DNA of 64,000 nt from positions 79,422,001-79,486,000 of the forward strand of contig OX597827.1 of the NCBI GenBank assembly GCA_951406725.2, given 5' to 3'. Numbering within the stretch: position 1 is the first letter of the stretch; every line of letters begins with the position of its first letter. The notes beneath the pieces are model-generated. The model was given only the letters and a program-made list of their open reading frames with translations. It made no database searches and was not told the origin of the DNA. Origin of the DNA: Octopus vulgaris. Lineage: Eukaryota. A program made the position numbers and the translations under genes. This document shows positions 1 to 64,000 of this stretch, one piece after another.

Positions 1-22
1 TCTGGTTTAGAATCATCAAACT
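1..22 (-). CDS. Probable terminal exon E3 of protocadherin gene A (partial, runs off the window)
   Basis: Minus strand reads ttttatattttacag|AG TTT GAT GAT TCT AAA CCA GA. With the phase-1 G from exon 6243-6405 this gives EFDDSKP, which aligns loosely to EYSNYRP of the paralogous E3 exons. Only 22 nt are visible. Confidence 0.5.
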
Positions 23-6242: not shown

Positions 6243-6405
6243 CTGATGTAATAGAAATATCACTGAAATTTCTTGTATATCTTTCATCCCAGGTACTTTC
6301 AGATGGCCATTGGCATGGCAATGTATTACTCATATAATTGATACTCTTAGTAGATATAGTTTCTCCATGCTCATCAGAAGACTCCTTACTTGGCTGATCA
6401 ATAGA
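6243..6405 (-). CDS. Protocadherin gene A cytoplasmic exon E2
   Basis: ttcttttaacttcag|TCT...ACA TCA G|GTAATT; 163 nt, phase 0 to 1, open: SIDQPSKESSDEHGETISTKSINYMSNTLPCQWPSESTWDERYTRNFSDISITS. Shares NTLP...W and the TCAG|GTAAT end with the other E2 exons. Confidence 0.8.
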
Positions 6406-9333: not shown

Positions 9334-11733
9334 CTGTGGAATTGGTGGAAGTTTTCTAGCTGTTGCTGAAAATTTGCCTTCATTGATAGTCTTTTCCATC
9401 TCAGGGTAATAATGACTTTTTGAGCTCATTGTCTGACAATTTCTGTTATATGTGTCTTCTGTATTTCTTGTAAATGTAATAGGGTTGTTAGTTTCATATG
9501 GCATTGGCCTCATCTTAGAGCCTGTCAGGATTTTATGATTATCTGAAGTTGAAGGTGAACTTTTAATGTGATTAATACATCTGAAAACACACATTGTTAA
9601 GCAAACTACAATACCCACAGATAGTATTACTCCTGCTGCCACAATGATTATTACCCAAATTATGTTTAAGTCAGTGCCAGATAAGAGATGGGTTGCAGCT
9701 TGCATTGGAAGTGTATCATTACTAACATGCAGTGTTAGCATGATAACAGTTGTTGCTGATTGAACTGGAGTACCACTGTCTTTCACCATGAACTGTAGCT
9801 CATACGTTCCAGCATCATTTATATTAATTATACGAGAGAATGATAATACCCCAGTGTAAGAATTTACCGTTAGCATGTTTTTATCATTAGATTTTAATAT
9901 TCCATATGTGAGGAAAGCATTGTTTCCAGTGTCTTTGTCAGATGCTTTCAGAATTGTAATGTCCTTTTTACTGTTTGGATGGTAGTGGACATCTAGATTG
10001 TAAGGGTCATTATTAGGAAACGTAAAATACGGAGCATTATCATTTTTATCTAGAATCTCAATAACAATATTGGCAGTGTCATTGAGAGAAGGTGTTCCAT
10101 TATCTTTCACTAAAACCTTGAACTTATAGATGTCTTTCATTTCTCGATCTATTGATTGTGATGTAGAAAAAAATCCATATTTTGTCAGTTGGAAAGGAAT
10201 GTTATCATTGTTGTTATCATTGATGATAGAATATGTAAGTTGGCCTCCATCTCCAAGATCTGGGTCTGTAGCATTGATGAAGCCAATAGGGAAGTCAACT
10301 TTCTGGTTTTCATAGGTGAGGAATTGGAATGTCTCTTTGGTAAAATGTGGCTCTACATCATTGACATCAAGTACTTCAATAGAAAATTGTTTTTCTGATT
10401 TGAGTGGTGGAAATCCCATATCCTGGCAAACAAGTACAATATCATAGCGATCTTTTGTTTCTCTGTCAAGAGGACATTTTGTGGTCATTTTATATTCATG
10501 TGAACCCATTTCAACTATTCCAAAGGTTTCATGTTCCAAATTACAATCAATCTGTCCATTTTCTTCAATATCATTGTCAGTAATTATGACATAAGCTATA
10601 AAACTACTAACTTTAATGTCTTCTAAAAGAGCAGTCGAACTTTCTGACAAAGGAAACACAAAGTCTATATCAATTTTTGGAGCAATATTATGATTGCTTT
10701 CTTTAGAAATCAAAATCACTGTTGTTGAACTTAAGGGAGGTTTCCCTCCATCTTTAGCCTCAACAAACAGCTTGTAAGAGTTTTTGGTATCTATTTTAAA
10801 GTACTCATTTACAAACAATTCTCCAGATGCCTTTTTCAAATCAAAATATTTTCTTATTTCAATTGGTGTTTTGGGACTATAATTAAAGGCAATCTTTCCA
10901 TTTGTCCCTGAATCTAAATCTGTGGCTTCTAAAACTAAAATTGGTTTTGATTTGGGGTGTTTATTCTTTATTGAAATGTTATATACTTTTTGAGAAAATA
11001 ATGGTTTATTATCATTAGAGTCAGTTACAGATATCTGAAAATGTAAAATATTTTCATTTGGTGGTATACCATTATCTTTAGCAATCAGCTTTAACATATA
11101 ATGTTTCTTTCTTTCTCTATCCAGCTTACCTTGTAGAACTATCTCAGGTATGAAAGTCCCATCATAGTCTTTTGAAAGAGACAATGAAAATGGGTCATCT
11201 ATATTTTCCTTCAGTTCATAAGTTATCCTAGAATTCTGAATGGTAATATCTCTATCAATAGCATTTGGAATTGGCTTTTTAGTTCCTTCCCGATCATTTT
11301 CATCAAATTGCAAATTTATTTCACTTTCTGGAAACTCAGGTCCATGATCATTGATGTCTTTTATGATTACTTTGACTTTTAAAATCTTTACATAGGTTTT
11401 TCTTTTCCGAACTGCTATCCTAACAATTTTGAAACATTCTTTGTTGATTGTACACAAAGACTCAGCATCCAGTGTCTGAGTTGTGTAAAGTTTCCCTAAG
11501 TTGGTGACATTAAATAGATGAGAGCCACTTGACACCTTCCTTTGTAATTGTGTAAACGTAACAAGATTGTGTTGTTGATGTTTAAAAAAATGTGACATAT
11601 TAGAATCAGCAGCAATATCTCCTATATAGGCATGAGGGCTGTTTTCTTCATTGATATGGTAGGTAATGTCTAAAGACACAACAGAGAACAGTAGCATGTC
11701 TAGCAAATATAGTGAAAGAATATTTCTTATCAT
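9334..11733 (-). CDS. Protocadherin gene A, large exon (signal peptide, EC1-EC6, TM, proximal tail)
   Basis: 800 open codons. Cadherin motifs DINDH, LDRE, ATDLD, DVND, DKNDNAP; EC1 LDAESLC-x5-C; TM IIWVIIIVAAGVILSVGIVVCLTMCVF. Acceptor tctttTAG at 11778-11780; donor CAG|GTTGGT at the position homologous to the paralogs' donors. Confidence 0.95.
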
Positions 11734-28993: not shown

Positions 28994-30750
28994 CCCCATG
29001 ACAACAATTTTTTTTCTTATCAAGTGACTAGGGTGCATTGATGGTAATTATCTCAGCTGAGATTAGCAATTAACACACAACAAATGGTTCAGCGTATATT
29101 TATATCAACTGCTTTAACCAGTTTACGGTGGTGATGGTAATCATGCTGAGTGAAGCCACCACTCAGTGTGAGATAATGTTCATTGTATATTTACATCAAC
29201 CACTTTCATGCAAGAACTGTTTGTTTACCTAAACTATATTGCTGTGCAGGATGCTCATGTGGCGAGTTTGACTTTGCCTTTCATCCTTTCAGGGTTGATA
29301 AATCAAGTACCAGTGAAACACTGGGGTCGATGTAATCGTTTATCTCTCTCCAACAAAATTTCAGGCCTTCTGCCTATTGTAGAAAAGAGTATTCCTGAAG
29401 ATCATTCGTCAGCACAAGCCAGATCAACTTCATGTATTTACTATCATGTGATTTCAAAAACGTTTTTCTTGTCACAGCACACTAGAGTGAGAATGCCACT
29501 ATTGGTGCATTGGTACACTGTTTCTCCCTGTCAAAGTTTTATCCTGTGAAGATCATATTTTTCCTGTGCATCTTCATCTTCACAGTCCCATAGGCGTTAG
29601 TCCTCCTCACCTGCAGTTGCAGGAATAGGTTTGAACTAGAAAACCAGATGTCCGTATAAACATTGTAGCCTTTATCAAAGAAGTTTTCATTTATAACAAC
29701 ATGACTTCAGTTAACACTTGAGTAGACACTGGAAGATCCACTCTCTTGACCAGTGTAGATTTTGTAATTCTATGTGTATCCATAAACTCTGCCAATCGAC
29801 TGGCATACTTTATAAACCTTGACTCCAAAGCAGGCATGTTTGGTTGGGTTGTATTGTTTGAATTGGTGCCTTCCCTTGAATTTCCACAACTCTTAGCCAT
29901 GTAAATGTCTTGCGTAGGGACATACATTGTTTTGAAATTGTCAGCCACTTCATCAATGATTGGATGTATCTTGTGCAGCCCGTCATTCTGGTTCTTACCT
30001 GAGTTGAAACGTAGCTTTTGAAGAAGCACCAAAAATTGATCATGTGGCATTGATTCCAGAAAGGAAAGTGTTGATGTAGCTGGATCCTGATTCCGATATG
30101 ATGCCAGGGTCAGTTTCTTCACAAAACCTATCAGTATCAGCAGGGCAAGCAAAACTTTGATTTTGTGCCTTGTGGTTGGAAACCAATCACTGTCATGGCA
30201 GAGTCTGATATGATAGGGTTAGTTTTCAGAATAGTCATTCATTTCATCTGCTATGTATTGGAACATTTCATCCATCAAAAACTTGTGGAAGATTTCCACT
30301 CGTAAACTTCAATGTTCAAGGTTTTCCTTTATCCCAGGTGTACCAGTAAACACATGCTTTTGGACGAAATTGTCTCTTACCACACATTCTGTTGTCCAGG
30401 GTCATTCACTGCTGCCCACCTGTACTTTTGATTCACCAGAATATCATCATCACTATTGGAATCATCTGATTCTGAACTAGGAAAATATTCACTCTCTGAG
30501 TCACCATCTGAACCAGAAAAAACAACTGGTGAAGTGGTGGAGCTTGGTGGAGCTTGGCATGACAACTGTGAATTTGATGGAATAGGACGTGACGATGAAG
30601 TTGATAGAGCTGGAGTGGTAGGATGTGATGACTGTAAATTCAATGAAACAGGATGTGATGACAAAGTTGACAGCGCTGAAGTGGCCAGACCAGCCTATCA
30701 GGTTGTAAAAATTTACATGAAACATCTAATTGGCCTATCAGTTGGTAGAT
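28994..30750 (-). mobile_element. Decayed piggyBac-like transposon
   Basis: TTAA|CCC terminus at 28990-28996. Minus-strand fragments MFQYIADEMNDY, WFPTT..KVLLALLILIGFVKK, KIHPIIDEV..NFK.MYVP, FGVKVYKVC, preceded by an acidic Ser-rich N-terminal region. Other end not located. Confidence 0.7.
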
Positions 30751-33610: not shown

Positions 33611-33770
33611 CTGATGCTCCAGATTTCTGAGATGTAATGTCACCTTCACTCCACCCACGGTTCCGTTCTTTAAGAGAGGGTAGTGTATCATTTAGATTGT
33701 TTGATGTCACAATGCTGGCATTAAAACATTTTTGTTCAGTTGAACTCTCTTCCACATCCTTATTGTAATG
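33611..33770 (-). CDS. Protocadherin gene B cytoplasmic exon E2
   Basis: ctgacag|CAT...TCA G|GTAATT; 160 nt; HYNKDVEESSTEQKCFNASIVTSNNLNDTLPSLKERNRGWSEGDITSQKSGAS. Confidence 0.88.
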
Positions 33771-37443: not shown

Positions 37444-39840
37444 CTGTGGAACTGGTGGCAATCGCCTAGGTGTCGTTGAGAATTTCCATTCATTGGCCAC
37501 CTGTTCCATTTCTGGGTAATACGGGCTTTTAGGTTTAATTGACTGAAGATTTCGGCTAAATATCTCTTCTGCATTTCTGGTTATTGCAACTGGATTGTTA
37601 GTCTGATACAGTATTTGTCTCATCTCAGTCTGAGAGAGAAATTTTGGGTTGTGTGCTGTTTCAGGGGCACTATTGATGTGATTAATACATCTGAAAACAC
37701 ACAGTGTTATTGACACTACAATAGCCACAGATAGTATTACAGCTGCTGCTACAATGATAATTATCCAAGTCATATTCAGGTTGTTACCAGCCTGTGAGTG
37801 GACAACAGTCAACATTGGAGATGTATCATTACTAACAAACAGTGTTAGTATGATAGCAGTTGTTGCTGATTGAACTGGAGTACCACCGTCTTTCACTATA
37901 AACTGCAGCTCATATGTTCCTGCATCATTTTGGTAAACTGTGCGAGAGAAAGATAACACAGCAGTGTGTGAGTTCACTGTAAACAGGTTTTTATCATTGG
38001 ATTTCAGTATTCCATATGTGAGGAAAGCATTGTTTCCAGTGTCTTTGTCAGATGCTTTCAGAATTGTGATGTCCTTCTTACTGTGTGGATGGTAGTGGAC
38101 ATCGAGATTGTAAGGGTCATTATTAGGAAATATAAAATATGGAGCATTGTCATTTTTATCTAGAATTTCTATAAGAATATTGGCAGTGTTATTCAGTGAT
38201 GGTGTCCCATTATCTTTGACTAAAACATGTAAATTATAGATGTCTTTTACTTCCCGATCTATTGGTTGTGATGTAGAAATGAATCCATATTTTGTCAGTT
38301 GGAAAGGAATGTTATCATTGTTGTTATCATTGATGATAGAATATGTAAGTTGGCCTCCATCTCCAAGATCAGGGTCTGTAGCATTGATGAAGCCAATAGG
38401 GAAGTCAACTTTCTGGTTTTCATAGGTGAGGAATTGGAATGTCTCTTTGGTAAAATGTGGCTCTACATCATTGACATCAGTTACTTTGACAGAGAACTGT
38501 TTCTTAGTCTTTAGTGGAGGTGATCCCATGTCATGACATACAATCGACACAACATAATGGTCTATAGTTTCTCTGTCAAGAGGTTCTTTCACCAATATTT
38601 TATATTCTTTAGAACCCATATTAGAAAGCTGGAACATTTTATGGTGAATATTACATTTAATTTGTCCATTAGGTCCACTATCAGTGTCAATGACCATAAC
38701 ATAAGCTATAAAACTCCCAATTTTACTTGCTTCTGAAATAGCAGCAGAATTCACTGTTAAAGGTGATACAAAATCTATATTTATTGCTGGAGCATTATTT
38801 TGATTACTTATTACATTGATTATTAGAGTGGCTTTAGAACTTAAAGATGGTTTTCCTCTATCCTTGGCTTGAATATATAATTTATATTTTTGCTGTTTAT
38901 TTCTGTAAAAATCCTCATTTAGGAATATCTCTCCATCTGGTTTCAGTTTGAAATGGGTTTTGAGATAAGAGCTTGTTTTTTGATAAAAGTTATATGTGAT
39001 ATTACCATTTTGACCTGAATCTAAGTCTGTGGCTGATAAAACAAAAACAGGAGAAGATGTATGATGTGTATCACTGATTGTGATGTTGTACATCTGCTGA
39101 GAAAACATAGGTCTATTATCATTGACATCAATAACAGATATTTCTATGTTCAGAGTATCTTCTTTGCGAGGAGAACCACTATCCTTTGCAACTAACTGTA
39201 ACATATAAGTGTCTTTTAATTCTCTGTCTAACTTACCTTCTAGTGCTATTTTAAGTATTTTCATTCCATCAAACTCTTCGAATATTGATAATATAAATGT
39301 ATTACTTTTATCTTTCAGTTCATATGTGATGTTAGAATTGAAAATACCAATGTCTTTATCCACAGCATTTGGTATTGATTTTGTCGAACCTTTTGCTTCT
39401 GTTTCATAAAATTCTAATTTAATTTGATCTTCTGGAAACTCTGGTTGGTTATCATTAATATCATCAATTATTATCTTTATCTTTAATATTCTTATGAATG
39501 TTTCTTCTTTCCTAACAGCTACCTTGACAATTTTAAAACATTCTTTTTTGTAAATGCATAGAGATTCAGCATCAAGTGTGTGTGTAGTGTATAGTTTCCC
39601 AGAGTTAGTGACATTGAATAAGTGAGATCCCATTGACATTGTTCTTTGTAACTGTGTAAATGTAATGGGAGTTCCCTGATGATGTTTGAGAGATTGAGAA
39701 AAGTTAGAATCAGCAGCAATGTCTCCTATGTAAGTGTGAGGACTATCTTCTTCGTTGACATGGTAAGTGATATCTACACTTAGGACACTGTGTAGTAAAG
39801 TATGTAGTAGACAGATGAATAAGCCACTCTCTTTTGTCAT
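37444..39840 (-). CDS. Protocadherin gene B, large exon (signal peptide, EC1-EC6, TM, proximal tail)
   Basis: 799 open codons with six cadherin repeats and a TM helix; donor CCA CAG|GTAAGA. Joined to 33611-33770 and 33258-33337 it gives a predicted 878-aa protein. Confidence 0.95.
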
Positions 39841-42195: not shown

Positions 42196-43625
42196 TATGA
42201 GCTCCTCTATGCTGATGACCTGGTCCTCTTAGCAGAATGACTACCGGAACTAGAAAAGAAATTTTGTGTGTGGAAGCTAGGTTTAGAATCAAAAGGCCTT
42301 AGAGTCAATGTAGCAAAGACCAAAGTTCTAGTAAGTAGGAAGGCGAACTCATCACACACCTCCTTAGGTAGGTGGTCCTGCTTGATCTGTAGAAAAGGTG
42401 TAGGTAGAAACTCCATAAGATGTACCCAGCTATGGACACATAAGAGGTGCAGCAACATCAAAGGAAAATTAACCGAGAAGATAGCTTTTGTGTGTGGCAG
42501 ATGCACAGGGGCAATAGACACCACAAATACTCAGAAAACAGATTCCATCACACTCCAGGGGGAGAAACTAGAAGTAGTTGATAGTTTCCACTACCTAGCT
42601 GACCAAGTTAGTAGTGGGGGTGGATGCTCAGAGAGTGTTACCACTAGAATAAGAATAGCCAGGGCAAAGTTTAGAATGCTTCTTCCCCTACTGGCGACAA
42701 AGGGTCTCTCGCTCAGAGTGAAAGGTAGATTATATGACGTATGTGTGTGAACTGCCATGCTACATGGCAGTGAAACATGGGCTGTGACTGCGGAGGACAT
42801 GCATAGGCTTGAAAGAAATGAAGGTAGCATGATTCGCTGGATGTGTAATGTCAGTGTGCATGCACGACAGAGTGTAAGTGCCCCGAGAGAAATGTTGGAC
42901 ATAAGAAGCATCGGATGTGGCATGCAGGAGAGACGTTTGCGTTGGTATGGTTATGTACTATGGATGGATGAGGAGAGATGTGTGAAGAAGTGCCATTTCC
43001 AAACTGTTGAAGGAATCTTGGGTAGAGGTAGACCCAGGAAGACATGGGATGAGGTGGTCAAGCATGACCTTCGAATGTTGGCCTCACAGAGGCTATGACG
43101 AAAGACCGAGACCTCTGGAGATATGCTGTGACTGAGAAGACCTGACAAATTAAGTGAGTTCATGGCTTGTAGGATGGCCTGCTGTGCTAACCTTGGATCG
43201 TAGGGTGACCTGCTGTGCTTGAGGAATCCTATTGAGTCAAGTACATCAACATCAAAATAAAAATCAAATGGAAATTGTGGTTGTGATACCTGTGCTGGTG
43301 GCACATAAAAAGCACCATCTGAACATGGCCGATGCCAGCATTGCCTTGACTGGCATCCATGCTAGTGACACGTAAAAGGCACCAACCGATTGTGGCCATT
43401 TGCCAGCCTCCTCTGGCCCCTGTGTCAGTGGCACATAGAAAACACCCACTAAACTCACAGAGTGGTTGGCGTTAGGAGGGGCATCCAGCTGTAGAAACAC
43501 TGCCAGATTAGACTGGAGCCTGATGCAGCCTCCCGGCTTCCCAGACTCCGGTCGAACCGTCCAACCCATGCTAGCATGGAAAACGGACGTTAAACAATGA
43601 TGATGATGATGATGATGATGATGAA
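42196..43625 (+). mobile_element. 5'-truncated RTE LINE in the first intron of gene B
   Basis: Starts at ELLYADD; GLRVNVAKTK, C2C2-like CLIC..CGRC, LHGSETW, RRLRWYG, GRGRPRKTW; 3'UTR repeats and (GAT)n tail. Confidence 0.9.
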
Positions 43626-45256: not shown

Positions 45257-45336
45257 CTACATAGACTCAGAATAGATTTCTTGTTCTTGTTCATTCTTTG
45301 GTGTCAGAGGTATGTTAGGCTGGTAGTTGCTATATT
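45257..45336 (-). pseudogene. E3 exon of a headless protocadherin unit (frame intact)
   Basis: ttattttccag|AA TAT...ATG TAG; 80 nt; (E)YSNYQPNIPLTPKNEQEQEIYSESM*. No large exon belongs to this unit; functional status uncertain. Confidence 0.75.
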
Positions 45337-45469
45337 CTGGAAAATAAGGGGAAGCTACTTAATGATGTTTTAATTTGTTTCCATGACAAATATTTGAATA
45401 TATCTAGGTTATGTTTCTTCATGGAAATTTTTATTTGCTGTTTGAATTTTTTGTTTATTTCATTATTAC

Positions 45470-45626
45470 CTGATGCTCCCATTGCTTGATTTGTAATGTC
45501 TCCTTTATTCCAGACATAGTTCCATTCTTTGTTCCAGGGTAATGTCTCACTAAGGTTGTTTGATGTTTCAATACTACCATAACATTTTTGATCAGTAGGA
45601 CTCATTGCCATGTTCTTATCTTAATG
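45470..45626 (-). pseudogene. E2 exon of a headless protocadherin unit (stop at codon 2, in-frame ATG at 45611)
   Basis: tttttacag|CAT TAA GAT AAG AAC ATG GCA ATG...GGA GCA TCA G|GTAATA; 157 nt; H*DKNMAMSPTDQKCYGSIETSNNLSETLPWNKEWNYVWNKGDITNQAMGAS. Confidence 0.75.
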
Positions 45627-47289
45627 CTGTAAAAAATATACAGATGAGGTGAAAAAAAAATTACTTGAAATGTTTCTATTTGGAGAATGGTTCATTATGC
45701 AATCATAACTCAATATTCAATACAACAGTATTACTCTTGGGCAGGTGGTCAATGGAAAATGTGAAGAAACCCATTGGATTGATTATATTTATGATACAAA
45801 GTTCCAGCTTGTGTTACACACTGTCACATTGTTTTTTGCCTGAGGGCTATGCCAAGGGCACACATATCTGTAGAATATTCGATCCCTTTTATGCTAATTC
45901 AATTTTTTGGTAGTTCAGTTGATAGAACAAATGAATACACATTGCCAAAGATGATAGAGATCATATTGACATATGGTTCATATTAAATACTTGATATATG
46001 AAAAACAGTAATTATGCTAGTCAGCCAAGAATGAATATTGTAGAAATGATTAGTTTTCATTTGACATTAGTGGATTTTTATATTTTACTACATCTATTTT
46101 TGTCATATTATTTTTATAGATATTGTTGAAATAAATATTGCAATCACCCAACATAATTATTTCTAAATTAGACTCAAGCCTACAAATTTTGTGGAATAGT
46201 ACAATCAAGTAAATCAAGTTTGTTTGAGATAGTTATTTTATTGACAATGGAAGGATGAAAAACAAAGTAAACCTCTATACAATTTGAACTCGTAGCCCAA
46301 TGATTTAAGTGTTTAGCTTGGCAGTCTACTGTAGGTGACATTACACTCCCCACCAATAATGAGGGTACTGGTATAGTTGACTGATATAAAATATAGGAAA
46401 TATTTGATTATATCAATTTTGTTGACACTACATCCAATCTGTTCAATGAGTTTAAAGAATATGAGTAGTTATTTAAAGAAAAGTACTTTTTAGAATAATT
46501 ACAATACTGTTACTAGAACATTTAGAGGAAAATAAATTATTAAATAAAATTTGATGAAAAATTTTATAAGTTGCATTAGTGAAACAGTTTACTGAAAGTA
46601 GCCAATTTCAAAACAATAGTTACATTTACATAACCATGTTACACTATTTTGTATTTATTATATTTTACTAGAATTAAAATAAAGCAATATGCAGTGTCAA
46701 CTTAACTTTGAAGTTTTAATGCCTGATATCTATATTAGAGATATTTACTTGTTGTTAATTAACTTAAATATGGATAGATTTTGGCCTGTTTTGTCATAGG
46801 CCATGAGTGTAACTTAACAGCATAACTATCATTTTCCACTATCTCAATACTTTAAATAATAACCATGAACTTATTGTATTTAGTGCTCAGGAACACTACA
46901 ACTTGTTGGAAAAGGGTAAAGAATGAATCAGAAAATAGCAATAAGCCAAGTGAAAAAAGACAATAATGATAAAGGAACATGCATAGTATTCAGGGTAAAT
47001 CACAAAAAGACAGGAAAGTGCACAGTAAAAGAGCCATAAAAAAGAAGGGTGAACAGGCACATCAGGAATAATGTTAGTGATTATTGAATGACACTACATT
47101 GAATGACACCAGATTGGATGTAGTTAGGATTTTTGAATGACAATGTCTTAACTGCTAACTACTGATGCAATAGTTTGTTCCTTATTTTGACAATTCAGGA
47201 TGCGAAAATTCTTCTTCGGAAAGTCACAGGTGCGGTGCTGTTTTTTGATTTTATAAGTATATCCTTGGTTTGTAGAACAACCACTGTAC

Positions 47290-48887
47290 AAGCACTGTAC
47301 AGGGATACTGTTAGTAATGTGAGGGTTGGCAATGGGTATAGTGAAGAATTCTGGGTAGAAGTAGGGGTTCACCAAGGATTAGCCCTCAGACCCCTCTTAT
47401 TCATCATAGTCCTCCAGGCAATAACAGAGGAATTCAAGACAGGCTGCCCCTGGGAGCTCCTCTATGCTGATAACTTTGTTCTAATAGCTGAATCACTACC
47501 AGAACTAGAGATGAAGTTTCAAGTGTGGAAGCAAGGTCTACAATTTAAGGGCCTCAGAGTCAATCTAGCAAAAACCAAAGTCATAGTAAGTTGGAAGATG
47601 GACAAATCACAAACCCCCTTCAGGTAGATGGCCCCACTTGATCTGTAGAAAAGGCATAAGTAGAAACTCCATGGAAGATAGTTTTTGCATGTGGGGCAAT
47701 AAATGCTGAAGATGTACAGGAAACAGATTGCATCACATGCTAGGGGGAGAAACTAGAAGTAGTTAATAGCTTCTACTACCTAGGCAACCAAGTCTGTAGT
47801 GAGGGTGGACACTCTGAGAGTGTTGCTACTAGAATAAGAATAGCCTGGGCAAAGTTCAGAAAGCTCCTACTTCTGCTTGTAACAAAGGGCTTCTCACTCA
47901 GGATAAAAGCTAGACTGTATGATGCATGTGCGCGAACAGCCACACTACATGGCAGTGAAACATGGGCCATGACTGTTGAGGACATATGTAGGCTTTAAAG
48001 AAATGAAGCTAGTATGATCCACTGGATGTGTAATGTCAGTGTGCATGCATGACAGAGTGTAAGTGCCCTGAGAGAAATGTTGGACATAAGAAGCATCAGA
48101 TGTGGTATGCAAAAGAGATGACTGCTCTGGTATGGTCATGTGCTAGATATGAATGAGGAGAGCTGTGTGAAGAAGTATCACTCCCTAACAGTGGAAAGAA
48201 CCTGTGGAAGAGGGAGACTCAGGAAGATATGGGATGAGGTGGTGAAGCATGACCTTCGAATGTTGACCTGCACAGAGGCAATGAGAGACCTTTTGAGATA
48301 TGCTGTGATTGAGAAGACCTAGCAAGTAAAGTGAGATCACAGCCGTGGCTTATATCAGTGTCGCATAATCAGCCCATTTAAAAGTACACTTGAATTGTTG
48401 GGCAATACACTACACTTGAGAAGACCTGTTGAATTAAGTAAAAGTGAAATCAAAATGGAAATCATAGTTGTGGCCGATGTCAGTGCTGCCTGACTGGCAC
48501 CATGCTGGTGGCATGTGATAAGTACCATTCAAGTGTGAGTCGATACCAATGCCACCTGACTAGGTGCCTGTGCCGGTAGAATGAAAATAGCACCACCCAA
48601 ATGTGGTCATTGCCAGTGCCTCCCAACTGGCTCATGGGCCAGTGGAATGTAAAAAGCACCATCTGAATGTGGTTGATGCCAGTGCTGCCTGACTGGCACC
48701 TGTGCTGGTGGCATGTAAAAAGCACCCACTCCATTCTCGGAGTAGCTAGCATTAGGGAAGGCATCCAGCTGTAGAAACTTTGCCGTATCAGATTGGAGCC
48801 TGATGCATCTTACTAGCTTGCCAGTCCTCACTCAAACCATCCAACCCATGCCAACATGGAAAACGAACGTTAAATGATGATGATGAT
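47290..48887 (+). mobile_element. 5'-truncated decayed RTE LINE
   Basis: VEVGVHQG..PLLFIIVL, GCPWELLYADN, GLRVNLAKTK, GRGRLRKIWDEVV; tandem 3'UTR repeats and (GAT)n tail. Confidence 0.9.
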
Positions 48888-50770: not shown

Positions 50771-50930
50771 CTGATGCTCCAGATGTTTGATGTGTAATAT
50801 CTCCATCACTCCAACCACATTTCCGTTCTTTATGAGAAGATAATGTATCATTCAGATTGTTTGATGTCATAATACCACTGCTATAACATTTTTGTTCAGT
50901 TGAAGTCATTGTTTCATCCTCATTGCAATG
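50771..50930 (-). CDS. Protocadherin gene C cytoplasmic exon E2
   Basis: tttttcatggtag|CAT...TCA G|GTAAAT; 160 nt; HCNEDETMTSTEQKCYSSGIMTSNNLNDTLSSHKERKCGWSDGDITHQTSGAS. Confidence 0.88.
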
Positions 50931-53829: not shown

Positions 53830-56238
53830 CATTGGGACTGGAGGTAATTTTCTGGGGGTAGTTGAGAATTTCCATTCATTAGCTGACTGCTTCATGTCTG
53901 AGTAATAAGAGCATTTGGGGTTTATTGATTGAAGATTTCTGTTAAATATGTCTTCTGCATTTCGAGTTATTGCAACAGGATTGTTAGTCTGATACAATAT
54001 TTGCCTCATTTCAGTCTGAGAGAGAAATTTTGGATTACCATTTGGTGTAGGGGAGTTATTGAAGTGGTTAATACATCTAAAAACACACATTGTTATTGAC
54101 ACTACAATAGCCACAGATAGTATTACAGCTGCTGCTACAATGATAATAATCCAAGTCATATTCAGGTTGTTACCAGACTGTGAGTGGACAGCAGTCAACA
54201 TTGGAGATGTATCGTTACTAACAAACAGTGTTAGTATGATAGCAGTTGTTGCTGATTGAACTGATGTACCACCATCTTTCACTATAAACTCCAGCTCATA
54301 TGATCCTGCATCATTTTGGTAAACTGTGCGAGAGAAAGATAACACACCAGTGTGTGAGTTCACTGTAAACAGGTTTTTATCATTGGATCTCAGTATTCCA
54401 TATGTGAGGAAAGCATTGTTTCCAGTGTCTTTGTCAGATGCTCTCAGAATTGTGATGTCCTTCTTACTGTGTGGATGGTAGTGGACATCGAGATTGTAAG
54501 GGTCATTATTAGGAAAGATAAAATATGGGGCATTGTCATTTTTATCCAGAATCTCTATAAGAATGTTAGCAGTGTTATTCAGAGAAGGTGTTCCATTGTC
54601 TTTGACTAATACCTGTAAATTATAGATGTCTTTCACTTCTCGATCTATTGGTTGTGATGTAGAAATAAATCCATATTTTGTCAGTTGGAAAGGAATGTTA
54701 TCATTGTTGTTATCATTGATGATAGAATATGTAAGTTGGCCTCCATCTCCAAGATCTGGGTCTGTAGCATTGATGAAGCCAATAGGGAAGTCAACTTTCT
54801 GGTTTTCATAGGTGAGGAATTGGAATGTCTCTTTGGTAAAATGTGGTTCTACATCATTGACATCAGTTACTTTGACAGAGAACTGTTTCTTAGTTTTTAA
54901 TGGAGGTGATCCCATGTCATGACATACAATAGATACAAAATAATGGTCTATAGTTTCTCTGTCAAGAGGTTCTTTCACCGATATTTTATATTCTTTAGAA
55001 CCCATATTGGAAAGCTGGAACATCTTATGATGAATATTACATTTTATTTGTCCATTACGTCCACTATCAGTGTCTGTAACCATAACATAAGCTATAAAAC
55101 TCCCAATTTTACTTGCTTCTGAAATTGCTGTAGAATTCTCTGTTAAAGGGGATACAAAATCTATATCTATAACTGGAGCATTATTTTGATTACTAATTAT
55201 ATTGATAATTAACATGGCAGTAGAACTTAAAGATGGTCTTCCTTTGTCTTTTGCTTCAATATATAATTTATATATTTGCTGCTTATTTCTGTAAAAATTA
55301 TTATTTAGGAACATCTCCCCATTTGGTTTCAGTTTGAAATTTGTTTTAATGTCAGACCTTGTTTTTTGGTGAAAGTTATACGTGATGTCACCATTTTGAC
55401 CAGAATCTAAATCTGTAGCTGATAAAACAAAAACAGGAGTGGTGATATGATGTGTATCACTGATAGAAATATTGTACGTTTTTTGAGAAAACATAGGTCT
55501 GTTATCATTGATATCTGTAACAGAGATTTCTATGTTCAGAATACCTTGTTTTGGTGGAGAGCCACTATCTTTTGCAAGTAACTGTAACATGTATTTGTCT
55601 TTTAATTCTCTGTCTAATTTTTCTTCAAGTATAATTTCCAATATATTCATTCCATCAAACTCATTAGATATAGATAATGAGAATTTCTTACTTTTGTCTT
55701 TGAGTCTATATGTGATCTTTGAATTAAGACGACCAATATCTTTATCCACAGCATTTGGTATTGATTTTGTTGATCCTTTTGCTTCCGTTTCACCAAACTC
55801 TATTTTAATTAGATCCTCTGGGAACTCTGGTTGATGATCATTAATATCTTGTATGATGACTTTTATCTTTAAAACCTTGATAAATGTTTCTGCCTTCCTC
55901 ACTGCAACTTTAACAATTTTAAAACATTCTTTGTTGTATGTACACAAAGACTCAGTATCCAATGTTTGTGTAGTGTATAGTTTCCCAGAGTTGGTGACAT
56001 TGAATAAGTGAGAACCACTAGCTGCTTTCCTTTGTAGTTGTGTAAATGTAATGAGAGTGTCCTGATGATGTGTAAGAGGATATGATAAGTTTGAGTCAAT
56101 AGCAATGTCTCCTATATAGGTTTGAGGAGTGCCTTCTTCATTGACATGGTAAATGATGTCTATTGAGACAATGAGAGACAGTACTTGGTATAAAATACAT
56201 ATCAGCAGACTTGTCCTTGTCATTTCTTTGTTTTTCAT
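53830..56238 (-). CDS. Protocadherin gene C, large exon (signal peptide, EC1-EC6, TM, proximal tail)
   Basis: 803 open codons (the second Met at 56223 is an alternative start); acceptor ttatttttag at 56261; donor CCA ATG|GTATGT. With E2/E3 the predicted protein is 882 aa. Confidence 0.95.
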
Positions 56239-61460: not shown

Positions 61461-61540
61461 TTATACAGGCTCTAAATACGTTTCTTGTTCCTGTGTACAC
61501 TTTGGTGTTGGTGGTATGTTTGGTCGATAGTTGCTGTATT
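61461..61540 (-). CDS. Terminal exon E3 of protocadherin gene D (large exon not in window)
   Basis: tattttcag|AA TAC...GTA TAA; (E)YSNYRPNIPPTPKCTQEQETYLEPV*. Confidence 0.85.
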
Positions 61541-63687
61541 CTGAAAATACATAAACATGGTTTATAATTTGATGTGAAATAGATTTATGAGCACAATTTC
61601 ATTTTTCTTTATAAAAGGTACTAATATTGCAATACTATACTTTTAGAAAATAAAATAATTTATTTTTCAGTGTTACTGCTAACTAAAGTTTAGTTTGTTA
61701 TGGAAAAAATATATAACTTTACATTATAGGCATATCATTGGAGAATATTAAGGCAGCTTTTGGAATAAATGATAATAAGGTAAATGATAAAAATATGCCA
61801 TGTATAAAATGAATAATATAAGGTGGATGTTTGATGGTTAGGATAAAAAAAGTTATGAATTTGGTGCAAATAAAGTATCACTATTAATTATTCAATTCTA
61901 TTAGGGAGAGAATAGTTTTGGGGCTTTAAAATGCATACATAGATAAGTGTGTGCTAACATGCACTCACACACATGAAATCATGCAAACATTTTTGTGTTA
62001 GTCAAAAGAGGTGGGGCATATCTATGAACTTTGAAGCACCTCTCAGACTGATGAGATAAATGCAAATTATGTCCGACCTGAATGTCTTCAGATCAATATC
62101 TGTAGGGAAAATGAGTTGGAACAGGGAATCCAATGACCTTGTCTGAAAGCTTACAATATTGTTAATTTGATAAAGGTAGCTGTGTGCTAGGTAGTTATTG
62201 TTTATTTTATTGGCCTCAAATAGATGAAAGATGACTTGAACCCTAATGGAATTCAAACTCAGAAAAAAGAAGCTGGAAATTAAGTACAGTAAAGCATTTG
62301 GCACAAACTCAGTGCTTAAATAAATAATAAAAAAGCTTTGGTAAAGGGAAAACAAAAGGAAAGATTGATCTCTTTTATCTATTTTTTGGTAACTTTAGTA
62401 CAAACAGAAAATATTGAAACATGATAAATAATCACAGCTTGATTTGATTGATAAAGTTATTTAAGGTCTGCATTATTAAGGTGTACTGCTATCAGGAGAA
62501 GTGAAAGTGAAATAATTAAAATTATTTCATGAAAAGTAGGATTATAAGTGTGATTACAATGGATATTGTAAAATATTTGTTTACTCAATAAGTTTCAATA
62601 AGCTTCTGATTACCATTGACATCCAAAACAAGTTTATAATTTAAATGAGGCTCCTTTATATTGGTACAATACTACGAAATTGAACAGAGACTACAAAAGA
62701 TGAAAAATTATCAGGTATGATTAATAAATACTATTTTTAAAAATGACTGCAATATGGTGAGTAGAGAAATCAAATCTGGCTGATCCTTTTTTCATCATGA
62801 TTGTTTAATACAGCTGGTTAACTTATTTTGAACTTGTTTAAAGAAGAAACTAAAGACTGGTAGTGATTAGAAAACTGAATGTTCATAACGAGACTCTTTG
62901 TAAAGAATATTTATGCTAATTACCTCTTAACTGAGCATTTTAAATTCAACTCCTAAATAATAGTTAATTAAGCAACTTAAAGAAAATATTTCTTCCTGTT
63001 CATGAAACAACCATTAGAGCGGTTAACTCTGGCTGGCTCATACTGAAATTTGTGAAAGAATATAATAAAGGGAATATTGCTACTAGCTGAGCAGTAAGAA
63101 GTTTGCTTTCCAGTCATATGTCTCCAAGTTCAACCCCACTGTTATGCCATATTATGTAGAAAGATTGATAATATTTTTCTTAATAAGTAGTAATCTTGTT
63201 ATATTTGAGTTGGTTGTAGTTAAATAACTAAGATACTTTCTTGTCTGAATATAGTTGCAGAAATAGATAAGGTTAAATTTTCTTCATGGCTACGTAGTCT
63301 AAGTTCAACTCTATTGCACTGTACTTTGGGCAAGAGTTTTCTAATTTAGTCTTGGGTCAACTAATACATTGTGAGTAGAATTTGGTTGACAAAAAATGTG
63401 TAGTAGCCTGTCATATGTATCTGTATCTAGTGGTGCAAAACAGACTGAGATGCATCCCTTTATATTAACAGGTTAAAATAACCATTTGATAATTAGAGTC
63501 AGGCAACTATCAAACTGAATGAACTATCAAGGGTGATACTATAAACTAAAACTCTTGAAGGTAGTGCCCCAACAAGACCTTAGTTCAGTGACCAGAACCA
63601 ATAAAAGAATGAAAGAAAAAAAATATTACATTAGTTTTATCTAATAATATTTTAAAATCTTTTGAATCCTGATTCATTTTTAATTAC

Positions 63688-63847
63688 CTGATGTTCCGGA
63701 AGTTTGATGTGTAATATCTCCTTCACTCCATCCTCTGTTTCGTTCTTTTTGAGAAGGTAGTGTGTTATTCAAATTGTTTGATGTCATAATGCTATCATTA
63801 TAACATTTTTGTTCAGCTAAACTATCTGCCACATCCTTATTGTAATG
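63688..63847 (-). CDS. Cytoplasmic exon E2 of protocadherin gene D
   Basis: ttttctgacag|CAT...TCA G|GTAATT; 160 nt; HYNKDVADSLAEQKCYNDSIMTSNNLNNTLPSQKERNRGWSEGDITHQTSGTS. Confidence 0.85.
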
Positions 63848-64000
63848 CTGTCAGAAAAGATAAATGGAAAATATATTTTCAGCATGAGAGTCAGTATTAA
63901 ATACAGTTAAAATCAAATTTGTGGTAGGATAGGAGAATTATGTTGCTTTTACTTTTTAAACAATAAATTTGATTATGGTTTCAACAAACGTTGAATCAGC

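Follow-up and report, generated by a model that had tools for sequence, protein, structure and literature searches.

A 198-nt core of the EC5 domain is probably kept nearly identical in 42 tandem protocadherin copies of Octopus vulgaris by ongoing gene conversion at the DNA level, and EC2-EC3 are likely too diverged to be overwritten. Comparing the sequences, we give this reading a probability of roughly 0.88. The window analysed is a stretch of 64,000 nt (GCA_951406725.2, contig OX597827.1, positions 79,422,001-79,486,000) and carries, on its minus strand, three reading frames (815, 813 and 808 codons) that we call genes A, B and C (Table 1). Their proteins have the composition of a six-EC protocadherin (signal peptide, Cadherin_2-type EC1, five more cadherin repeats, one transmembrane helix and a tail, according to Pfam), and this identity agrees with the AlphaFold model and the best PDB folds (pcdh8.1, gammaB4 and pcdh10). 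Among the matches listed, the closest database relatives are named protocadherins of Octopus vulgaris, O. sinensis and Argonauta hians. Gene A is the single divergent member of the array and shares 99.75% identity with the O. sinensis protein P0029.

Table 1. Protocadherin features in the 64,000-nt window, in window positions.
Feature	Position	Strand
Gene A (array copy g15), homogenised tract: EC4/EC5 linker and first ~57 EC5 residues	10171..10368	-
Gene A, remaining EC5: pS 0.015 vs downstream-type genes, ~0.25 vs B/C-type genes	9976..10170	-
Gene A, large coding exon: signal peptide, EC1-EC6, transmembrane, tail start	9334..11733	-
Gene A, exon 2 (own, cytoplasmic)	6243..6405	-
Gene A, exon 3 start; runs on beyond the window	1..22	-
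Gene B (g14), homogenised tract	38281..38478	-
Gene B, large coding exon, upstream-type subgroup U	37444..39840	-
Gene B, exon 2 (own)	33611..33770	-
Gene B, exon 3 (own), ends at stop codon	33258..33337	-
Gene C (g13), homogenised tract	54667..54864	-
Gene C, large coding exon, subgroup U	53830..56238	-
Gene C, exon 2 (own)	50771..50930	-
Gene C, exon 3 (own), ends at stop codon	50349..50428	-
g12 (next gene upstream), exons 2 and 3, bounds approximate; large exon beyond the window	61464..63850	-

The sequence-only reading had counted one (A/B), one (A/C) and two (B/C) nucleotide differences among 10172-10369, 38282-38479 and 54668-54865, and these counts are correct. The in-frame 66 codons (DVNDVEPHF..QLTKYGF) begin one base lower (10171-10368 in gene A) and differ at 2 (A/B), 1 (A/C) and 3 (B/C) positions, every one synonymous. 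Within the tract, gene A differs from B at 2 of 42 synonymous sites and from C at 1 of 42, against proportions of 0.52 and 0.54 over the remaining ectodomain (binomial p 5e-11 and 3e-13; <1e-7 after x590 windows). The same contrast is not significant for B/C (p 0.12 after correction), since these genes are similar across all of EC4-EC6. The description of three otherwise divergent paralogs therefore suits gene A, but not the B/C pair, with nucleotide identities of 93% in EC4 and 97% in EC6. The tract has a sharp edge only on its 5' side, at the EC4/EC5 linker. On the 3' side, near-identity continues in gene A: compared with downstream-type genes beyond the window, it covers ~390 nt, all of EC5, with 6-7 differences.

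The tract is not confined to three copies, as it had first appeared. A DNA search with it returned 40 scored copies with identities of 97-100%, and a 28-base pattern was found in 42 (an exact match in 35, a single mismatch in 7), which all lie on one strand at C14:79.18-79.62 Mb, with 0 control matches. These genes of neuron-surface adhesion proteins (protocadherins) are arranged in tandem on the same strand over ~440 kb. No ectodomain-coding gene devoid of the tract was found in the inter-copy gaps (225,660 nt, with five long ones trimmed to 10 kb), and the window and flanks contain no ectodomain beyond the 42 tract copies, so the tract is present in 42 of 42. The sole coding remnant in the gaps is a single 59-codon cytoplasmic-tail fragment (L131:9557-9730), between g41 and g42. 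The large exon, encoding EC1-6 and the transmembrane segment, is intact in 32 copies (11 of the upstream group U, including B and C, gene A, and 20 of the downstream group D) and broken in 10, mostly by 1-3 small indels. The broken copies were dropped from the codon statistics and kept in the tract haplotype count. The copy g16 (L008) is 5'-truncated and has insertions in EC6, while its tract and 3' EC5 are still 97-100% identical to those of intact genes. Shared constant exons downstream of the array were ruled out, as every gene has its own exons 2-3, in agreement with the separate exons per gene in Albertin 2022 (PMC9068888).

The window also holds, at 45271-45626 on the minus strand, an orphan pair of protocadherin exons: an exon 2 that carries an in-frame stop and an exon 3, to which no large exon belongs. 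They are either what is left of a gene since deleted, or alternative 3' exons of gene C that are now dead. The unusually long gaps flanking gene A hold frames at 29691-30218, 42241-42750 and 47166-47627, which resemble transposon or LINE fragments.

Uncorrected synonymous divergence (pS) among the 32 intact genes of the array is 0.30 in EC1, 0.516 in EC2, 0.488 in EC3 and 0.27 in EC4, falls to 0.048 in the tract, and is 0.16 in the rest of EC5, 0.053 in EC6, 0.052 in the transmembrane segment (TM) and 0.28 in the tail. Synonymous divergence in the tract is thus far below that of its flanks; non-synonymous divergence (pN) there is 0.003. Between U and D, pS is 0.047 in the tract and 0.044 in EC6, against 0.630 in EC2 and 0.621 in EC3. 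EC6 is a second homogenised island, which couples U and D and leaves out A (0.28), whereas A and D are coupled in the remainder of EC5 (0.015), with U left out (~0.25-0.26). The islands are nested, and the tract alone couples all three lineages. The word focal, applied to the tract at first, proved too narrow, as homogenisation extends to EC6, the transmembrane segment, exon 2 and intron 2. A short EC1 segment (window 11430-11511) is a high-copy repeat in independent reads, and EC1 windows of D genes have low pS, which suggests a third, shorter homogenised island.

Homogenisation also reaches DNA that encodes no functional protein. The first copy of the array, g01, is decayed: EC3 and the tail are frameshifted, with 71-84% identity and many indels, 34 bases are lost in the 3' EC5, and EC1-2 and exons 2-3 were not found. 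Its tract nevertheless shows 0 differences from the majority, and its EC6 has 95-100% identity; the decayed flanks were recovered as single-copy contigs in the independent runs X15 and X6. In the D genes, exon 2 is 98% identical, and so is intron 2 (12 genes with enough sequence), whereas intron 1 (22 genes) is near random, with 52% identity against 45% for shuffles. In array 2 (9 loci), intron 1 starts with ~340 nt of 92-99% identity, and the uniformity ends there. Neither the introns nor the dead g01 is under protein selection, which is therefore excluded as the cause of their uniformity, and the homogenised introns imply a process that acts on DNA rather than through cDNA or protein. Judging from the 7 of 39 gaps that were profiled, most of the intergenic DNA cannot be aligned, which, together with the near-random intron 1, points to old array copies.

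A ~750-nt non-coding island was observed in 25 D-group gaps (L132-L156; in L149, for example, on the minus strand, ~780-1600 bases from the upper end), with 88-96% identity, CAG-rich repeats and a strong splice donor. It is located 1.4-8.6 kb upstream of the large exon of the next gene, which opens with a splice acceptor, and it is likely a homogenised promoter with a non-coding first exon. A loose pattern for a CTCF-like promoter motif gave 0 matches in 39 gaps.

In Argonauta hians, at least 25 proteins have EC5-6 identities of 86-89% (among the best 120 of 333 matches), 11 of them U-type and 14 D-type, so both subgroups are present. As EC5-6 similarity was the basis of the retrieval, uniform members are favoured in this set; the matches drop from 86% to <=75%. 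Residues diagnostic of the species are located in the tract (4), the rest of EC5 (1), EC6 (10) and JM/TM (3), 18 in total, with only 1 outside, in EC4. Residues that distinguish the subgroups across species are found only in EC2 (5), EC3 (9), EC4 (14) and the tail (7), with none from EC5 through TM. Trees were made at the protein level from the 32 intact genes and the 25 Argonauta proteins, leaving out 7 O. sinensis proteins. The EC5-6 tree separates the species (support 100/99), while in the EC2-3 tree, from a quick search, U sequences of both species stand apart from all others, and the species come together inside the subgroups; AU tests rejected the swapped topologies (p 9.9e-8 and p 2.7e-48). 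A per-domain check of the kind proposed in the sequence-only reading thus groups EC5-EC6 by species, and EC2-EC4 and the tail by common subgroup. As far as these sequences go, such a combination is the defining signature of partial-gene concerted evolution. Equal invariance between distant species, which would have favoured a constrained element, is not what we see, since the 4 tract residues are fixed differently in Argonauta.

The last gene of the array, g42 (L019), is a mosaic with an EC2-3 lineage of its own and has a 1:1 orthologue in Argonauta (P0034), with which it pairs in the EC2-3 tree; in this, g42 resembles a vertebrate C-type gene at a cluster end. Among the best 120 of 333 matches, no O. 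bimaculoides protein exceeds 68% identity in EC5-6, and this array may be lost, collapsed or unannotated in that species. Runs X20 and X21, from more distant octopods, gave EC6 contigs that are ~3-7% different; as small-share runs they were set aside as evidence.

Statistical tests for conversion gave mixed support. A Sawyer-type runs test, in the manner of the GENECONV check that had been proposed, reached the permutation floor in 42/42 U-D and 7/7 A-D pairs, but the top runs lie mostly in EC6 or the 3' EC5, outside the tract, and only 1 of 6 pairs of gene A with U was below 0.05, the test having low power where all copies are invariant. Tract similarity shows no dependence on gene distance (Spearman 0.01-0.10). 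Overall, the collapse of synonymous divergence, the species-wise grouping, the pseudogene g01 and the introns give strong support to the gene conversion first proposed from three genes; unequal crossing-over may also contribute.

Three more arrays have a similar profile, at 80.38-80.67 Mb (24 genes), 80.10-80.21 Mb (12) and 81.36-81.46 Mb (8), with tract pS of 0.022, 0.004 and 0.013 and EC2 pS of 0.38, 0.41 and 0.18, respectively. Arrays 2-4 and the dispersed genes are samples, as the search behind them scored 150 of its 224 candidates; ORFs found broken in arrays 2-4 were left out, as was one 1000-aa gene. Each array has its own tract sequence (pS between arrays 0.49-0.68), and 28 dispersed genes, with a pS of 0.72, show no homogenisation. 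When two flanking, non-homogenised genes are included in array 3, its tract pS rises to 0.10; homogenisation is therefore not universal. Between arrays 1-3, pS is 0.31-0.40 in EC6 and 0.29-0.33 in TM, compared with ~0.65 elsewhere, perhaps a hint of older conversion between arrays. GC3 is higher in EC5-6 than in EC2-3 in 4/4 arrays, by 0.11-0.19 (+0.05 in dispersed genes), but the EC5-6 value of the present array (0.325) equals the dispersed mean (0.320). This signature is weak, and GC3 was rejected as proof of biased conversion.

We propose that non-allelic recombination would copy tracts of a few hundred bases only where donor and recipient are already near-identical. The process would reinforce itself, as any new EC5-EC6 variant either spreads across the array or gets erased. 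EC5-EC6, the slowest-changing domains, would remain within the identity threshold; among the 28 dispersed genes they are the least changed at the protein level (pN 0.15-0.22 vs 0.27-0.31). EC2-EC3, most of intron 1 and the intergenic DNA would have drifted beyond range, each copy then evolving alone, and the 198-nt tract would be the remaining island that still couples U, gene A and D. The expected consequence is a set of ~32 intact isoforms whose membrane-proximal stems would be interchangeable and whose EC2-EC3 vary.

The alternative that survives best accepts conversion as real and adds that selection for a uniform cis-assembly surface retains it at EC5-EC6, every isoform then being able to pair with every other, zipper-like as in vertebrates. 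In the latter, EC5-6/EC6 form promiscuous cis-dimers and EC1-4 give trans specificity (PMC8901172), and the octopus genes have features compatible with such a division: a like domain layout in four arrays and two genera, an almost unchanged tract protein (15 of 21 substituted sites are synonymous), and variability concentrated in EC3 and in the first strand and loop of EC2, where it peaks in four groups. Against it, none of the 106 octopus proteins checked has the residues by which the vertebrate cis-dimer is defined, so the constant cis interface suggested from three genes is not supported, although a different lateral surface is possible. The position of gammaB7 V560 is K/R in 106/106 and that of L555 is L/V in 0/106, while F/Y occurs at Y532 in 104/106 and A at A570 in 101/106 (mapped by the gammaB4 alignment with gammaB7 numbering assumed; position 555 adjoins a gap). 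In mouse, V560R blocks the cis-dimer's EC6-only side (PMC8901172), and delta-protocadherins, which lack these residues, form no cis-dimers (PMC7082078). The homogenised dead gene and introns, as well as the 4 amino-acid changes fixed in the Argonauta tract, also argue against this selection, which we consider possible, if rather unlikely. Nor do 5-codon windows speak for positive selection in EC1-4, those with pN > pS being rare (0, 3, 0 and 1 of 88). The EC1-4 variability profiles correlate between groups at 0.32-0.46, but just as well with dispersed genes, at 0.30-0.48. A complex prediction for two EC5-EC6 copies of gene B, which made no use of the alignment, scored 0.00 and is uninformative either way.

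Equally tentative is a broader proposal, that octopods independently built a neuronal barcode of the vertebrate type, in which conversion maintains an array-specific EC5-EC6 stem that mediates lateral assembly through a non-vertebrate surface, while selection shields EC2-EC3 for homophilic specificity. If so, each array would be a separate combinatorial recognition channel, perhaps picked from near-identical promoters.

That the copies are recent whole-gene duplicates, with EC5-6 left alike by a fast divergence of EC2-EC3 under positive selection, seems very improbable. Some species-specific clades in the EC2-3 tree and a burst of octopod protocadherins dated to 8-14 Ma (PMC9795677) would fit this scenario. 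Against it, the synonymous sites of EC2-3 have diverged as well (pS ~0.5), intron 1 is near random and the intergenic DNA mostly unalignable, and the subgroups and one 1:1 orthologue pair are common to Argonauta. A small number of young pairs, g07/g08 for instance, may nonetheless stem from recent duplication. Octopus is placed outside the pair to which the 29-Ma argonaut fossil belongs. The Argonauta split is older than this fossil (PMC7104719). Whole-gene trees and the distance-based octopod dates are likely biased young, because the subgroups common to Argonauta predate that split.

Hardly more credible is a tract maintained as a selected nucleotide element, be it an RNA structure for A-to-I editing, a regulatory site or a sequence-defined hotspot. 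Cephalopods edit their RNA extensively, and the sharp 5' edge and very low synonymous divergence would suit such an element. RNA editing in these animals is mentioned in PMC9068888. The recombination hotspot or RNA element offered as an alternative in the sequence-only reading finds no stable fold, since the folding z-score of the tract is +0.73 against -2.8 to +1.0 for 10 other gene windows. Nor is the region conserved across paralogous arrays or species: it is saturated between arrays and among dispersed genes, its protein is altered in Argonauta, and other, unrelated islands behave alike.

A consensus artefact had also been named as a way in which the pattern could arise. The 42 tracts comprise 28 haplotypes with a mean of 2.3 differences, and their 24 variable columns (15 synonymous, 6 non-synonymous, one codon deletion) carry variants that form a patchwork across U and D, one occurring in 13/42 copies and another in 6/42, for example. 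In independent short-read DNA runs, one tract contig has a depth of 847 vs 22.9 in the flank (X15, 37x) and 207 vs 8.5 (X18, 24x), contig depth being a rough guide, and in both runs it overlaps the single-copy contig of gene A; in run X6 the tract contig is not among the contigs listed. The small indels that break most of the 10 damaged copies may be base-calling errors, but these largely synonymous and shared haplotypes, the read depths and the same protein pattern in assemblies of other species make it extremely improbable that assembly or polishing merged repeats into one consensus. Short reads from EC5-6 and the D-gene tails are not assignable to single genes.

Homogenisation through gene conversion has been proposed in coleoids for whole genes (Albertin 2022, PMC9068888; Styfhals 2019, PMC6339937), and coleoid sub-arrays are likewise tandem, same-strand arrays of full genes on one chromosome (PMC9068888, PMC6339937, PMC9795677). 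In the available parts of these papers there is no domain-level profile, cross-species domain incongruence, or pseudogene or intron evidence; the terms EC5 and EC6 are absent from PMC6339937, and conversion from PMC9795677 (Jiang 2022). The literature searched yielded no domain-level analysis of conversion in cephalopods, which older papers may record, and no binding or structural study of an octopus protocadherin. The best sequence and fold matches are delta-2 protocadherins (pcdh8.1, pcdh10, pcdh19), which also have six EC domains and no clustered cis signature; these are single dispersed genes, whereas the octopus genes form large converting arrays.

Domain-restricted conversion is known from the clusters of fugu (PMC1852091), Xenopus and mouse (PMC4978886) and zebrafish. 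As in octopus, vertebrate clustered protocadherins form tandem same-strand arrays in which a single large exon encodes EC1-6 and the transmembrane segment, and EC4/5-EC6 reach ~100% identity inside a subcluster but diverge from one subcluster to another, with a discrete 5' boundary and EC2-EC3 spared. EC2-EC3 set homophilic specificity in vertebrate protocadherins. The domain map of the octopus genes predicts that specificity lies in EC2-EC3, mainly in the first strand and loop of EC2, and indicates which parts would be interchangeable, so domain-swap aggregation assays can be designed directly from it. The systems differ in that vertebrate clusters (alpha, gamma) splice to shared constant exons and octopus genes have their own exons 2-3; octopus also lacks the cis-interface residues, has a much weaker GC3 rise, and has nested islands coupling different subsets of genes. 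The expansions have been termed convergent or independent (PMC4978886, PMC9068888), and the octopus array is a convergent instance of a known process in an independently expanded family, without the vertebrate cis signature. The same pattern in genes with neither this signature nor constant exons bears on the question of whether the vertebrate layout is an adaptation for cis-promiscuity or a by-product of conversion in constrained domains.
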